A DNA stretch of 64,000 bases from Escherichia coli (GTDB lineage: Bacteria > Pseudomonadota > Gammaproteobacteria > Enterobacterales > Enterobacteriaceae): the NCBI RefSeq assembly GCF_048403405.1, contig NZ_CP183129.1. One strand, 5' to 3'. Below are positions 57,701 to 64,000 of the stretch, piece after piece. Positions within the stretch are counted from its first letter, which is position 1. Each line of letters opens with the position of its first letter. Position numbers: made by a program.

Positions 57701-60700
57701 GTTTATAGTCAGAAAGGAGATATTGAGGAATAAGATAAAAATGAAAGTCTGTTTAATTATTTTGTTTATTAATTTTGCTTTTTGTTTTCCGTTAATGGCG
57801 AAGACGTTATTTTTAGGTGATTCATTAACGGCTGTTTATGAAATGTCAGCAAAATATGTTTTGGATGAAAAAATAAAAACAGAATATGTTTCCGGTTCGG
57901 GGTTAATAAATAAAAGTAAAAAAGATTGGATCGCTTTCGTGAATAATTTCGATTTGCGGGAGTTTGATAATGTGATTATTAGTCTCGGAACAAATGATTT
58001 TGTTCAATATGGTTCGGATGAATGGCTGAAATATTACAGTCTGGTATTTCAATTCATTGCTGAAATTCAAAGTGAAAATCCGTTAGCGACAATTGTCTGG
58101 ATATCTCCACCACATTTAAAAAATCCGGAACATGAACGTTATTTAATACATACCCGGCATATAATTAAACACAGTGCGATGTTATTAAATATTCATTATC
58201 TGGATATTAATCAGCCTCATATATTAGGAACGCAATGGCAATCTGTTATTCATAATGAAACTGTACGAACTGATGATGGAATACATATTACCCGTAAAGG
58301 GGGAGTACGGGTGATCAGAGAAGTGGTAAAAATCCTGAATGGGCAGGATTGACAAAGATAAAAAAACGGCTAAAAATGAATCTGCTTATCTCGTTGCGTA
58401 ATGCAACTTGCCAATGCTTCGGTTGTCTGAGAGAAGCGCCTACGGGTGACAACAATGCCAATGTTCCGGCAATCTGAGAGGAACGCCTACGGGTGATTGC
58501 CACTGCCAATCCTCGGGTCATCTGAGACGGGAGCCTACGGGCGATGACAGAACTCCGTTCGTCCTTGAAATCGACGGAGGGTGATAACAGAATAGCGTTA
58601 TCATCAGGATTATTTTTACGCAACGCTTCATATAACCTGCCCGCTGACGGGGAAATCACCCGTCATCAGGGAATTTCTCCGTTTTTTCAGGAGAAATTCA
58701 ATGAAGGTATCTACATTTCCGGAATCGTCTTTTTTTGACGATCTGCACTCTCTCACGCAACTGCATCACCTCTCAGGTGAGCTCGACATGGTTCTTGCTT
58801 TTGTCCGTCTGGATATTGGCGAGCACCCGGACGAAGATAATTTTCCGCCAAACTTCTGGATAATCAGTGCCGTTGCAGAGCAACTGGGCGCGTTATCTGT
58901 GGAGGCTGATTTTACCCGTCCACATCTTGAGAAAATGGTCCGCGCTGTCTGGAAAGCGGCTGAGCAAACGCCTTATGCGTCTGACTTTCGCCGTATCTAC
59001 AACGATGCGATCAAAAATGCACAGTTTGAAGATCCGGTTGAAGCGCTGATGTTTGGTGCTTAACGGCGGACATTCACTGATTTTATGACCCATACGGGAA
59101 AACATCCCGTGAGGGCTGTATTCCCTTATCTGAGGATAGCCCTTATGACTCTTTTTACATTGAATTATGGTGTTGCCCACGTAATGTCTGGTATTGCCAG
59201 TTATTTATTTCCGCATTCCCGTGTTTCTCAGCAACTGAAGGCCGTTGCTAATGATGCCCGGATGCTGAAAATCACCGCAGAAGAACTGGAGGTGATACGT
59301 TTGGACGAAAAACGGATGTATCAGAGCGGAGATTACAGAGAACTGCCGTTTATTGAGCTTGATTTGTATACAACGGCATTTCGTTTTGGCGCCCTGATTT
59401 ACTATGGACTCGCAAACCGGTGCCCCCGCATTTTTGCTTCACCGGCTGACAGTCATCGCTGAGCGGCTCGATCCGGAAATCTGGAATGAAGCCTGGCGCT
59501 GGGGTTACCGCTGCTGCCTGCAACACGAAAATGAAAAGCATGTAACCGACTGATTTAACGGACTCACAGGTGTCAGTCAGCTACCCTGAAATGGGGCTGC
59601 TTCCATTTACTGATCAGGTTTGATAACCATGATTTATGGCATTACCCGCGGACTGTTCTTTGTGGCCGATCACGTCTGTCGCTATTCCCGGAGTTGGGAA
59701 TGGCTGATGTGGCTGGTTGAGGAAGCCCGGACACTGCGAAATGTTGAGGCTGATTTGAAACTGGCTGAAAGGTATGCCGGTGAGCAAAACCGCCCTCATT
59801 CCATTTCGCTGATGAAGTGTACGCTTTATGATGCCGGATTTGCTTACGGCAGATTATTACTGTGGCGTGCGGATGGTCTGATGAGACCCTGGCCGGCATG
59901 TCTGCTTCGCCGTTTACCGGATATCGGTCAGCGGATTGATGCAGTGATCTGGCAGAAAGGCTGTGAAGCCGGCTTGGATGAGACCGTCAGTGAATGGATG
60001 GCAATGGAGATGGCTGATGAATACCTTGTCGGTATCGAACTGAGCGACTGATTTGCCGGCATTCATTCTTTTTTTACTTACCTACCCGACGGGGAAACTC
60101 CCCGTCAGGTGGACGTTTCTCCGTCTTTTTTTACCGGAGAAACACACATGTCTGTTTTACTGCCAGAAAACAAACCGTTTTCATTTCTGAGTCTGATCAT
60201 GCAACGGCTGTACCGTTTTTATGACCGTATACCGTTTGTTTCGTCAGGGATACCCGGTGAATTACCGTGGATAAGTAACCGAACCGGCCGGCGCGCTTAC
60301 CGTGCGACGGTGGTGAAAGTGAATCCCCGGCAGTTCAGGATCCGCATTACTGTACGTCTGGGCGCGCATTCGAAAGAATACCGCTTTCATTCGTTGATAA
60401 CCTCGCTGGACAGCAGGACATTTTGTTCCATAAAAGCGGCCTCCCGTGCCGGATTTGCACTGACATACCAGCTGGCACAGGTGCGTTATGCCTGGTGTCG
60501 CTGATTTGTTGTACTGATAGCACCATTGACTTTTTGTTATGACCCCGCCCGGCGGATTGATTTCCGTCAGGAGATGAATCCGCCATTTTTTTAATCAGAA
60601 TGAGGATTTATCACATGGGATATACACATTATTTTACACAAAAACAAAGCGTTGACCCCCTGATGTGGCAGAACTTCCGTGAACATCTGGACAAGCTCTA

Positions 60701-63700
60701 TCACCACTATCTGGCCAATCCCATATCCGCAGAGCAGATTTGCGGCGGATACCCAGATAAACCTATTGTGTTGTGTGATGGCCTGGAGGAAAAACGGCTG
60801 AATGATGGCTCATTATTCACCGACGACGGTGAGGCGCTTTGTTTTAACGGTAATGCGGCTGATGACATGAATCATGAGACGTTTATTGTTCAGCGCGAAA
60901 TCCCCGTAGAGGACTACTGGGATTTCTGCAAGACAGCATACAAACCCTATGACGTGTTTGTAGTCGCGGCATTACTGTTGTTGTACAACCTGTGCCCGGG
61001 ATATTTTTCGGTCTCTTCTGACGGGGATATCCGGGACTGGCAGCCGGTGCTGGACTATGTCAGTCAGGTATTTCCTTATCTTATCCTGACGTTACCGGAA
61101 GGGATAGGTTTACCGGAGGCAGGATAATGGCCAGAGCCTGTACGATACGGGAACTGATAGCGGATTTATCCCGCTGCAATCCGGAGGCATTCGTCTTGTG
61201 TGAGATGTGGTTCCCCGATGATGTTACCTATGTTGATGAAACGGCTTGTCCGGCAGAGACACGGGCAACATTAACGCATGTTGCACATCATTTTGATGCG
61301 GAGCTGGGGATCAACTGGGACACGCTGGCGTGTGCGTTATCGTGTGTCAGAGATGCTGAGCAGAAGGGACTCGATATTTACTTTTATGCCAGTGAAAAGC
61401 GTGGTACAGACAAAAGCCGGATACCCGCCTCACGTTACGCAGAAGCGGACAGCGACGGCGATATTGAAGTCGGGTATTTCCGTAAGGTTAATGCGCTGTT
61501 TAAGTGGGTGCATGACCATATCGGGGCTTTTGAGAACTGTGAAAAGGTGCTGGTGACAGAGGCCCATCTGCGGGCTTTACAGCAGGACTTGCAGGCACTG
61601 ACACCGGAAAACTGTCAGACACGGTTCCCGACCACTGAGGGCTTTTTCTTTGGTTCAACGGCTTATGATGAGGCGTACTGGGCTGATGTGGAAGGCGTCA
61701 GACGCTGGCTGTCAGAGATAACGGAGACGTTTGACTTTGACGCAGAGTCACTGTTTTTTGTGGCCTGGTGGTAATCAGGTAAGGTGTTTCCCCGGGAAGC
61801 ACTGAACACATTTTAATCAGTGTTTCCACTGGAAACGCCGGTTGAAAATTAACCATATTGTTTTTTCACCTGATGGTGTATCTCACCGTCAGGACGGGAT
61901 ACACCTTTTTTATTGAGGGTATTCCGATGAAAAAATCTGACCGTAAACGCCGTCCGGCAGCGGATAAGCCGGTTCGCGATATTTATCAGGAAGTGACTGA
62001 CCGTATTGTGGCCGCGCTGGAAAAAGGCACCCGTCCGTGGAAACGACCATGGCGGCCGTCGGAAGGGACAGGCACCGGTTTTCCGGTGAACGCCCTGACC
62101 GGTCATTCCTACCAGGGGATAAATGTGCTGCTGTTATGGTTGTCGGCGGCGGAGCAGGGCTTTGGTTACGATATCTGGCTGACTTACCGTCAGGCACAGC
62201 AACTGGGTGGCCATGTCCGTAAAGGCGAAATGGCGACGAATACTGTGATATTCAAACCGGTGAAGGTGCCGGCAAAAGACCGTCACGGTGAGCTGCTGCG
62301 GGATGAACACGGTGAGGTGGTGATGACGGAGGTGCCGATGATAAAGGCGAATCCGTTATTTAACATAGCCCAGTGTGATGACCTGCCGGCGCATTTTTAC
62401 GAAAACCGGCGACTACCCGGAGAGGAGACAGCAGGGATAACCCTGCCGGCCACGCACCGGGTGCTGGATATCCTGAATGCCAGCGGCGTGAAGGTGACCA
62501 GTGCGGCGCAGAACCGGGCGTATTACAGTCCGTCACAGGACCGGATTGTGATGCCGCTGTCGTCACAGTTTGACCGGAATGCCGATTACCAGGCCACCTT
62601 ACTGCATGAGTTGGTGCACAGTACCGGTCATCCGTCCAGGCTGGCCCGTGAAGGCATCACCTCATCGTCCCTGAAGTTTGGTGACCCGCTGTACAGTTTT
62701 GAGGAGCTGGTTGCGGAAATGGGCAGCGCTTTTCTTTGTGCGCAGTTAAGCGTCGAGGGAGAAGTGAACCATGAAAGCTATCTTGACAGCTGGCTGCGGG
62801 TACTGAAATCGGACAAAAAAGCGTTGTTCCGGGCCGCCGGGCAGGCCCGCCAGGCCTGTGAGTTTTTACTGAATGTGGCCGCATCCCGACAGGCCGCGTA
62901 GGAGACTGCGATGAACAAAATGACCATTATCCGCTTTCAGTTACTGGTACATCAGTTACTGCAAGTGCATTACGGCATTACGCTGAGTGATACCGGATTG
63001 TCCGATGATGCTGAGGTGTCCCGGATGATTGAACTCGGGATATCGCCGGTATCGGTGGTCAACCGTCTGGTGGATAAGTACCACCTGGATAAACTGAATG
63101 CATCCTGTTATCTGCCGGCATCCCCGTATGTCAGTGACAGCGATGCCTTACTTGCACAGGCTCAGCTGAGCGGTGCCATTAACCCGGATGTCATGCCGGA
63201 TAATCCTTAACGATTAACGACTGACATCTTTCCCGTGAGGGCTTGTTCCTCACGGGATAAGCCCTCTTTTTTATTCTGAAAAGAGGACATCATCATGCCA
63301 AACTGGTGCTCGAACCGACTTGACATCACCTTACACAACGCGGCGGATATGCCGGCTCTTAAACACTGGATATATGCGGATGATGGGATACCCGCCTGGC
63401 AGACGGCGATAGCACAAAGTCTGCATTTGTTGCTGGCCGGCTGCGCGGGGATACTGAAACCGGTCAGACCGCTGTCTTTTCCGCCGTTACCGGAACTGAC
63501 TTCATACGGTGCAACCGGGCCTGTTTCCCCGGGAAACACGGCTTTCACGCACTGGGTTGACCTGCTGATGACTGCACCGGATTTGACACCGTCATGTTGT
63601 CAGCAAATCCATCAGTGGTATCAGATGTGGTTATCTGAAGGCGGGGCGTACCATTCCTGGGACTCGCTGACGGCGACGCAGAAAGCGAGACTGTCCCCGT

Positions 63701-64000
63701 TGTTATCGGGAAGCAGTTTTGACTGGCTTAACCGGTTTACCGGAGAGGATGAGAGCCGGGTGGCGACAGCCTGGGAGGATATTCAGTACCTTCGCAGTAC
63801 CGGAGAAGCCATACCGATGGATATGCGGACTCTGTTACCGACCAGCCTTGCGGCTGAATTACACGGTTTTAACGGCTGTTTATGGAAAACACCGGAGGTC
63901 ATCTGGCGGCAGGCGCGCTGGCAGGCGTTTGCCCCCGGTAACAGTACATATCACCTTTATCAGTGCCGTTATGGTGTGAAATGGCCGAACGGCAGTGGTT

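Follow-up and report, generated by a model that had tools for sequence, protein, structure and literature searches.

An ArdC-anchored array of small genes in an ICEPm1-type integrative and conjugative element of Escherichia coli

What are the small genes that surround ardC at the end of the 64,000-nucleotide stretch of Escherichia coli DNA analysed here (contig NZ_CP183129.1 of assembly GCF_048403405.1, hereafter the window), and what could they do for the element that carries them? On the basis of sequence comparisons, the block that they form (58701–64000) is the ArdC-anchored variable accessory segment of a known, ICEPm1-type integrative and conjugative element (ICE) of the ICEHin1056/PAPI-1/ICEclc lineage. 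That this segment also serves establishment or anti-defence is a further proposal, and we hold the chances of its being right and wrong to be evenly balanced.

Position of the block in its host element

Positions 56000–64000 of the window are 100% identical to several E. coli chromosomes, and are covered to at least 80% in 21 of 5,426 complete genomes. A plasmid origin of the block was considered and rejected, as a PLSDB search gave no near-identical plasmid. The element is recognised as an ICE of the ICEPm1 type by three characteristics, i.e., an ArdC shared at 100% identity with Proteus mirabilis ATCC 29906 and Providencia stuartii, the presence of taaP, and integration at tRNA-Phe; ICEPm1, ICEPm2 and ICEPm3 have been described previously (PMC11278526). 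The block sits between traG, the last gene of the type IV secretion system (T4SS), and the traI-int-tRNA-Phe end of the element. Upstream, a long run of T4SS genes of the TIGR037xx “integrating conjugative element” families ends with traG (52938–54419), which is followed by an oppositely oriented DUF3742 gene and two small open reading frames (ORFs). Next in order are an integrase-domain gene, an SGNH hydrolase gene, six hypothetical genes, ardC, a “CbtA family” gene and a DUF1281 gene, 3′ of which the RefSeq annotation of the identical chromosomes places a 77-aa ORF, traI, the integrase gene and tRNA-Phe. As the first-pass annotation of the window had stated, the block is fully co-oriented: every ORF lies on the + strand, with traI, and points towards it.

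An ArdC-anchored scan, with one genome per species, yielded 80 loci. In 45 of them, which belong to Enterobacterales, Pasteurellaceae and Pseudomonas, ArdC is flanked, on its own strand, by homologues of TraG, of TraI or of both, which identifies ArdC as a backbone gene of this ICE lineage. The distance from TraG to ArdC ranges from 0.9 to 9.6 kb, and that from ArdC to TraI from about 0.2 to 9.6 kb; both intervals are thus variable hotspots. A 282-kb IncFIB plasmid of K. michiganensis (NZ_CP048109.1; locus L090, 27031–45321) carries a whole ICE-type module composed of a TIGR037xx T4SS, TraG, a STAXI RNA, an EFASI RNA, an integrase-like gene, a second STAXI RNA, five small ORFs, an ArdC-like gene, an orphan N6 methylase, UvrD and a MOBH TraI, the methylase and the UvrD helicase falling between the ArdC-like gene and TraI.

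A divergent copy of the segment (94.6% identical, ICEPm2-type) is held by the mouse E. coli strain M9 (locus L082), and is probably one of the elements of E. coli from mouse faeces that have been equated with ICEPm2 (PMC11278526). Directly upstream of its first STAXI copy, in the place of the traG, DUF3742 and two small ORFs of ICEPm1, M9 carries an operon (L082, 1–5504) coding for a non-ribosomal peptide synthetase, a flavin adenine dinucleotide (FAD) oxidoreductase, a 3-deoxy-D-arabino-heptulosonate 7-phosphate (DAHP) synthase and a phosphopantetheinyl transferase. This operon is probably the phenazine module described for ICEPm2, and the STAXI boundary would offer a second place for cargo to insert.

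Two other observations concern the element at large. The window contains a long stretch of low GC content (26–40% GC, 4001–31000) followed by the conjugation module at 52–63% GC, a contrast that indicates compositionally distinct modules. In a related ICE of Morganella psychrotolerans, a match to the C4 antisense RNA (RF01695) lies between traI and the integrase gene (L027, 9705–9793).

Small genes and their turnover

The coordinates of the ORFs (Table 1) coincide exactly with RefSeq coding sequences of the identical chromosomes, the start of the second ORF excepted. Consequently, ORFs 58701, 59629, 60148, 60615, 61127 and 62911, the partial 63295 and ardC exist as first annotated, whereas the second ORF, originally placed at 59085, begins at 59184 in RefSeq; a terminator-like hairpin (59108–59150) falls within the longer form, so that this start is uncertain. 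The comparison with M9 covers five of the six ORFs of unassigned function (59184 is absent from M9) and gives ratios of nonsynonymous to synonymous substitution (dN/dS) that, in addition to those listed in Table 1, are 0.17 for the C-terminal part of 61127, 0.19 for ardC and 0.24 for traI. The low values of the small ORFs (0.10–0.35) indicate genes under purifying selection and rule out that they are spurious.

Their set is far from stable. The whole 59184 cassette is missing from M9, which also has separate 86-aa and 136-aa genes where the window has the single ORF 61127. These two genes are 97 nt apart, and the spacer between them, which holds a hairpin, a U-run and a Shine-Dalgarno (SD) sequence, is deleted in the window. 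As judged from this alignment, a 97-nt deletion joined two ancestral genes in frame to give ORF 61127, and genes of the array are gained and lost as cassettes, recombination between paralogous leaders being the simplest explanation of these indels. Among genera, the set of small ORFs located between the second STAXI RNA and ArdC varies, and most of the products are acidic.

The first-pass annotation found no product matching a nameable family, and this does not hold: 62911 matches CbtA_toxin, 63295 matches DUF1281 plus DUF1281_C, and the C-terminal 136 aa of 61127 match phrog_7971 (1e-25). Beyond this last match and a weak hit between 60148 and the functionally uncharacterised phrog_20987, the six unassigned ORFs hit no family of Pfam (its LPD models included), NCBIfam, PHROGs or PADLOC, and the PADLOC defence-system models gave no match at E ≤ 0.01 for 10 products. 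The small proteins are almost confined to mobile elements and phages, turn over fast and are mostly acidic; five of the six unassigned products have a pI of 4.35–5.09 (RefSeq start 59184 excluded), ORF 60148 being the single very basic protein of the array. ORF 58701 has only close homologues (at least 78% identity), in Morganellaceae and E. coli, while 59629 has a homologue of 36% identity in the equivalent array of the K. michiganensis plasmid and 60148 a weak counterpart in the array of a locus (L051) from a metagenome-assembled genome (MAG).

Two families are considerably wider. The first one, that of ORF 60615, comprises 5,746 representative clusters (50% identity) at E ≤ 1e-3, and its members nearly always begin with MGYTHY[FW]. 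Its invariant columns include H5, N78, T107, P111, Y112, D113 and G137, and the near-invariant ones (at least 90%) include H87, E88, C105, K106, K110, S135 and D136. One of its ten longest relatives carries a Pfam domain, through a fusion to LPD29, a domain of polyvalent proteins, and distant relatives sit in arrays of unannotated small ORFs in large phages and metagenomic contigs. The second family corresponds to the MGLDIYF domain encoded by the 3′ part of ORF 61127. It recurs just upstream of ArdC in ICEs of Xenorhabdus and Morganella, is duplicated in X. innexi, and is also present in SSU5-like phage-plasmids; it is the only family that recurs between the second STAXI RNA and ArdC across genera, and is always the last gene before ArdC. 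Structure prediction, run on these two products, gave confident AlphaFold models (60615: mean predicted local distance difference test score, pLDDT, 89.6 and predicted template-modelling score 0.88; MGLDIYF domain: pLDDT 88). No fold match to 60615 and no significant match to the MGLDIYF domain was found in PDB, nor did either model show a known anti-defence fold.

Table 1. Features of the window discussed in the text. Positions are those of the window; dN/dS refers to the comparison with the M9 copy.
Feature	Position	Strand	Remarks
Palindrome pair upstream of traD	35293..35345	+	Copies at 35293 and 35329
Sigma70-like promoter of STAXI copy 1	55916..55944	+	TTGACG-17-TAAATT
STAXI RNA copy 1	55958..56115	+	RF01728, 112.1 bits
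EFASI RNA	56593..56744	+	RF02957, 78 bits, far above gathering threshold
Integrase-domain protein	56825..57733	+	Morganella orthologue has Pfam Phage_int_SAM_2 and Integrase_1
SGNH/GDSL hydrolase family gene	57741..58352	+	
Sigma70-like promoter of STAXI copy 2 and small-ORF array	58349..58377	+	TTGACA-17-AAAAAT
STAXI RNA copy 2, 5′ leader of the array	58392..58551	+	RF01728, 123.3 bits
Structured leader of ORF 58701	58552..58700	+	z = -5.0; terminator-like hairpin 58646–58687, its 3′ arm pairing with the SD in full-length RNA
ORF 58701, 120 aa	58701..59063	+	pI 4.6; no family; dN/dS 0.24
ORF 59184, 92 aa	59184..59462	+	Alternative start 59085; weakly similar to ORF 59629
ORF 59629, 140 aa	59629..60051	+	No family; dN/dS 0.35
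Leader of ORF 60148	60088..60147	+	Terminator hairpin and U7, -23.8 kcal/mol; alternative SD-occluding hairpin
ORF 60148, 118 aa	60148..60504	+	Very basic, pI 11.3; dN/dS 0.21
Terminator hairpin and U-run ahead of ORF 60615	60551..60585	+	-22.9 kcal/mol; apex CCGUCAGG
ORF 60615, 170 aa	60615..61127	+	“MGYTHYF” family, outside Pfam; dN/dS 0.10
ORF 61127, 215 aa	61127..61774	+	86-aa gene fused to 136-aa “MGLDIYF” gene (from 61364)
Palindrome pair upstream of ardC	61785..61838	+	Copies at 61785 and 61821
ardC leader	61859..61926	+	Alternative helices H1, T (terminator and U6) and H3 (SD region)
ardC	61927..62901	+	ArdC-N single-stranded DNA-binding domain and zincin-like metallopeptidase, HELVH motif
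CbtA/YeeV-like protein, 99 aa	62911..63210	+	Starts 9 nt after ardC
Leader of the DUF1281 gene	63211..63294	+	Strong terminator 63237–63266; same three-helix design as the ardC leader
DUF1281/Api92-like gene	63295..64000	+	Runs off the window; 333 aa in full

Promoters, structured RNAs and leader hairpins

The two STAXI RNAs of the window both span positions 1–153 of 153 of their model (Rfam gathering threshold 40.5). When 13 STAXI copies were aligned (window 55888–55970 and 58322–58404, plus 11 in loci L004, L007, L009, L051, L083 and L090), all of them had upstream a near-consensus -35 element (TTGAC[A/G]), a spacer of 17 nt and a -10 element (TAnnAT, with A2 and T6 invariant), while the sequence of the spacer was not conserved. 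The conservation of an ordinary double-strand promoter in this position places STAXI at the 5′ end of a transcript, which is compatible with its detection as an RNA (PMC12370729). Additionally, the order STAXI, EFASI, integrase-like gene, SGNH hydrolase or another gene, STAXI, small ORFs and ArdC is found in eight enterobacterial loci, i.e., ICEPm1, ICEPm2, Morganella, two Xenorhabdus species, Chimaeribacter, an Enterobacterales MAG and the MOBH plasmid of K. michiganensis. The published association of STAXI and EFASI with antirestriction and integrase genes is reproduced here, and the sigma70 promoter 5′ of every aligned STAXI and the fixed gene order are new. To our knowledge, STAXI has been an orphan motif since 2010, and EFASI is likewise a long-standing orphan. 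In the ICE of Pseudomonas putida KF715, a radC RNA motif (RF01754) lies between TraG and ArdC (L035, 8682–8817), approximately where the enterobacterial ICEs have STAXI, so that the kind of structured RNA at the head of the ArdC region seems to vary from branch to branch.

Downstream of STAXI, structured leaders had been noticed on first reading, and folding bears them out: six of the seven intergenic regions fold better than their shuffled versions (z from -2.7 to -8.5), and one has z = 0. As an indicator of whether the hairpins are to be read as RNA or as single-stranded DNA, the strand asymmetry of folding is inconsistent, the sense strand being favoured by the ardC and 60615 leaders only. 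Nearly every intergenic region contains a sense-strand terminator hairpin, the 3′ arm of which is able to occlude the SD of the next gene. A custom scan for hairpins followed by a U-run gave 8 on the sense strand (1.6 per kb) and 0 on the antisense strand of the array and ardC units (58380–63300), and 8 (0.36 per kb) and 13, respectively, in the T4SS operon (32000–54400). A separate terminator scan of 54400–64000 gave 18 terminator-like sites vs 9.5 ± 3.1 in shuffles. Antitermination of the RfaH/ops type was considered and rejected, as the ops element is absent.

Folding was applied to six leaders, five of which belong to the window while the sixth is that of the M9 gene equivalent to the second half of 61127. 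With the RNA cut at the end of the U-run, five of the six form a canonical terminator (-18 to -29 kcal/mol), and the exception, the ardC leader, forms helix H1. In full-length RNA, the terminator 3′ arm of four leaders pairs with the SD of the next gene while an upstream hairpin, H1, forms. In the ardC leader, helix T excludes both H1 and H3. Among eight sequences of this leader from three genera (represented by E. coli, Morganella and Xenorhabdus), H1 is paired in 100% of the cells with compensatory changes in 3 of 10 pairs, H3 in 90% with changes in 2 of 12, and T in 97% with changes in 2 of 8. The covariation score of H1 plus H3 was reached by 0 of 500 shuffles; the sample of related sequences being small, it is suggestive rather than proof. 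The leaders may act as switches between two states, an intrinsic terminator and a hairpin that covers the SD of the next gene. The terminator at 63237–63266 closes the unit formed by ardC and the CbtA-like gene.

The leaders also resemble one another. Those of 58701 (58646–58687) and 60148 are 76% identical, and the hairpin apex CCGUCAGG is common to ICEPm1, ICEPm2, Morganella and the MAG, with Chimaeribacter reading CCCUAUGGG. In Morganella morganii, there are three near-identical terminator hairpins, GGCGG[G/A]UUUAUUUCCGUCAGGG...CCGCC (L083, 3076–3110, 5159–5192 and 5822–5857), two of which precede tandem paralogues of the 60615 family, which indicates that leader and gene were copied as one unit. 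Such observations could call to mind an integron-like platform, in which the EFASI-associated integrase-domain protein would recombine the hairpins and shuffle cassettes made of hairpin, SD and ORF. The presence of the integrase-domain gene at the head of the array in eight of eight loci, the cassette-sized indels that distinguish ICEPm1 from ICEPm2, the duplicated hairpin-plus-gene units of Morganella and the apex motif common to several cassettes would all agree with it. However, the U-runs of the hairpins are on the sense strand only, as expected of terminators, one “indel” removes the hairpin itself, and the apices are conserved whereas the bases of the stems vary; by inspection, with no formal attC search, no conserved core sites were seen at those bases. 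Moreover, recombination between leaders that are 76% identical explains the indels equally well, and we regard the platform as very improbable.

How would a transcript that starts at STAXI pass so many terminators? By analogy with two kinds of cis-acting processive antiterminator, the put RNAs of phage HK022 and the EAR RNA of B. subtilis, which are also structured, pseudoknotted RNAs between a promoter and a terminator-bearing gene array, STAXI and/or the basic protein 60148 might let RNA polymerase or ribosomes pass the paralogous leader switches. By contrast with what could be expected from homologues, STAXI has no sequence or Rfam relationship with put or EAR, and we consider this read-through a long shot. 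If it were true, the ICE would produce its small establishment or anti-defence proteins in a burst confined to the appropriate state, STAXI would gain a function (cis-acting antitermination or leader control), and the leaders would represent a new family of switches in ICE accessory arrays.

ardC, its regulation and the possible role of the block

The ardC gene, the only recognised anti-defence gene in the block, is intact, as had been claimed. Its product has the N-terminal domain (PF08401, 131 bits vs a cut-off of 22.6) and the C-terminal zincin-like metallopeptidase or MPTase-PolyVal domain (PF18818, 137 bits), and matches R388 ArdC (PDB 6I89) over its full length (E 1.5e-59, aligned to residues 7–291), with HELVH aligned to the HEATH of 6I89, so that HExxH is kept. 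By similarity, ArdC would protect incoming single-stranded DNA from restriction. Although it shares full-length homology, both domains and HExxH with ArdC of the IncW plasmids R388 and pSa (PDB 6I89/6SNA), here ardC is a chromosomal ICE backbone gene close to a MOBH-type TraI, is followed by a CbtA-like gene, and has an operator pair of the traD type and an attenuator-like leader in front of it.

The CbtA-like protein 62911 scores 49.6 bits against CbtA_toxin (PF06755, cut-off 25), residues 9–84 covering profile positions 22–99 of 112. It thus matches the conserved core of the toxin of the CbtA/CbeA type IV toxin-antitoxin (TA) systems of CP4-type islands, but the first 21 positions of the profile are missing and there is no adjoining gene for the antitoxin CbeA/YeeU: its neighbours are ArdC and DUF1281, and no product of the block matches the CbeA family. 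The position that corresponds to F65 of CbtA, an FtsZ contact, appears to hold Arg, and the part of the N-terminus around R15, which contacts MreB, appears to be missing. On the other hand, phrog_23459 aligns to both the C-terminal domain of ArdC and 62911. ArdC-N, MPTase and CbtA/YeeV make up a combination of domains already known from the “polyvalent” proteins that conjugative elements use early in invasion (Iyer et al. 2017, PMC5512222), to which the LPD29 fusion of the 60615 family provides a second link, with the difference that here the domains are encoded by separate adjacent genes. Consequently, ardC and 62911 may be read as a split polyvalent protein rather than as ArdC plus a classical TA toxin. 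As for the last gene of the block, the 63295 product matches DUF1281 (PF06924, 136 bits), the ferredoxin-like DUF1281_C (PF18406, 58 bits) and Api92 (PDB 2IJR, E 2e-41).

The regulation of ardC seems to differ from that of the array. A 17-bp palindrome, TGTTTCCnnnGGAAACA, perfect or near-perfect, is paired 36 bp apart upstream of both ardC and traD, within a homologous segment of about 85 nt. Single copies are found inside the DUF1281 gene (63522–63539) and at the 5′ end of traI (L001, 28999–29015), and both the ardC pair and the DUF1281 copy are kept in ICEPm2 and Morganella. The palindrome looks like the putative operator of an ICE regulator, and the shared module would place ardC under the regulator that also acts at the beginning of the T4SS operon. 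The oriT hexamers of ICEclc (CCCTTT/GCCTTT) differ from TGTTTCCnnnGGAAACA, and no link between them is claimed. As a side note, the 742 codons of traD form one uninterrupted ORF in the window (35321–37549), whereas RefSeq calls it frameshifted in strain CRE287 (L001, 1–1550).

This shared module raises the alternative that the block codes for donor-side effectors, i.e., that expression of the ardC unit, and perhaps of the array, begins together with that of the T4SS in transfer-competent donors and that the proteins are delivered with the DNA, as described for pSa ArdC and RP4 TraC1. The location of the genes relative to oriT would then be of no importance. The conservation of the two-palindrome module in ICEPm2 and Morganella and the location of ArdC, as a backbone gene, between the T4SS and relaxase genes are consistent with such delivery. 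However, a repressor that binds the palindromes would equally give zygotic induction in recipients, following the p576 paradigm (PMC6294495), and the array uses a different promoter. We consider donor-side action possible but doubtful, in an estimate that is not exclusive of the other readings.

The alternative of action in the recipient depends on the polarity of transfer. In leading regions, genes are transcribed with the transferred strand as template (PMC11541004); following that report and the F-plasmid paradigm, a nick site upstream of traI on the minus strand would make the block the first part to enter, and its genes would have the transferred strand as their template. A 175-bp AT-rich interval with inverted repeats upstream of traI (L001, 28768–28942) may hold a promoter and/or the origin of transfer (oriT), and in relatives of ICEclc the oriT has been reported to adjoin an SNF2 helicase gene. 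The annotated start of ICEPm1 traI (L001, 28886–28943) is probably 19 codons too far upstream, since the M9 orthologue (L082, 14588) aligns from residue 20. As in the leading-region anti-defence islands described by Samuel et al. (2024, PMC11541004), the block has co-oriented small, often uncharacterised genes with an anti-restriction gene near the relaxase gene, and a TA-type gene. By contrast, it has no ssb, psiB, ardA, klcA or known acr genes, and uses a double-strand sigma70 promoter and STAXI, with terminators between the genes.

Taken together, these features are consistent with the following model. The block would contain at least three co-oriented transcription units: one in which a sigma70 promoter leads through STAXI into six (ancestrally seven) small genes, each after a terminator-like hairpin; another in which the operator pair common with traD precedes an attenuator-like leader, ardC and the CbtA-like gene; and a third one formed by the DUF1281/Api92-like gene. 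During transfer or shortly afterwards, the products would affect the host, in establishment or counter-defence, with inhibition or modification of host factors as the task of the small acidic proteins. With an oriT immediately 5′ of traI, the block would enter first and the products could be made in the recipient; alternatively, they could be made along with the T4SS in the donor and possibly be translocated.

Such an establishment or anti-defence role is plausible on the grounds of the ArdC anchor, the polyvalent links, the small acidic proteins of mobile elements and the orphan methylase of the K. michiganensis relative. The anti-defence island first proposed therefore stands in part, as an ArdC-anchored accessory region beside the relaxase gene whose small proteins are restricted to mobile elements, but not as regards similarity to anti-defence systems or the content of relatives' hotspots, which is mainly defence. 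Several results weigh against the role. No small ORF is similar in sequence to known anti-defence proteins, and the best fold matches of the two modelled proteins (the DapD N-domain, YfbM and DMP12) are weak and not significant. No Frpo-type single-strand promoter was found, the intergenic hairpins being short and having U-runs on the sense strand, in a search that did not compare known Frpo/ssi sequences directly, and no oriT or nick site was detectable in the ICEPm1 region, where the repeats upstream of traI are unremarkable apart from AT-richness. The operator shared by ardC and traD suggests co-regulation with the donor transfer machinery and, hence, expression in the donor. Compact relatives have ardC abutting traI (about 170–400 bp between tblastn matches). 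Finally, a Pfam census of 148 representative interval ORFs is dominated by defence and conflict genes (e.g., DndB, N6 and C5 methylases, type I HsdR, SWI2/SNF2, double-GTPases, AbiEii, AAA_21/23 and ThiF), and the TraG-bounded GI-Hotspot 2 of PAPI-1 is rich in defence and TA genes (PMC12629846). Like the block, GI-Hotspot 2 of PAPI-1/PAGI-type islands is a variable, conflict-related region directly downstream of traG in the same lineage, but in Pseudomonas it holds mostly defence systems and type II TAs and is bounded by a helicase gene, whereas here the boundaries are ArdC and TraI and the content is small ORFs without assignment.

Part of this evidence fits another alternative, which we judge rather unlikely: a generic cargo hotspot, with small ORFs of miscellaneous function (ICE regulation, exclusion, toxin or immunity, host adaptation) that lie here only because insertions are tolerated between TraG, ArdC and TraI, and with ArdC as a backbone relaxosome or transfer factor rather than the mark of an anti-defence island. 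It would account for the variable intervals on both sides of ArdC, for the defence and other conflict genes that fill them in other ICEs, for a hotspot delimited by TraG in PAPI-1 and for the biosynthetic operon inserted just upstream of STAXI copy 1 in ICEPm2; similarly, the very basic ORF could be a regulator. By contrast, most of the large ORFs among the 148 representatives lie on the opposite strand (whether these are the defence genes was not checked), while the small ORFs are always co-oriented with ardC behind one STAXI-led promoter. Small acidic proteins found only in mobile elements are also atypical of defence or metabolic cargo, and the block is linked to the network of polyvalent-protein domains.

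ICEPm1-type elements move between clinical isolates of Proteus, Providencia, Morganella and E. coli. If the array does aid establishment in new hosts, it would be a determinant of host range for these elements. The 60615 and MGLDIYF families, which are large, unannotated and associated with mobile elements, are candidates for new counter-defence or host-takeover activities. In addition, the fixed order of promoter, STAXI, array and ArdC, together with the operator common to ardC and traD, makes the roles of STAXI and EFASI and the timing of ArdC expression directly testable questions.

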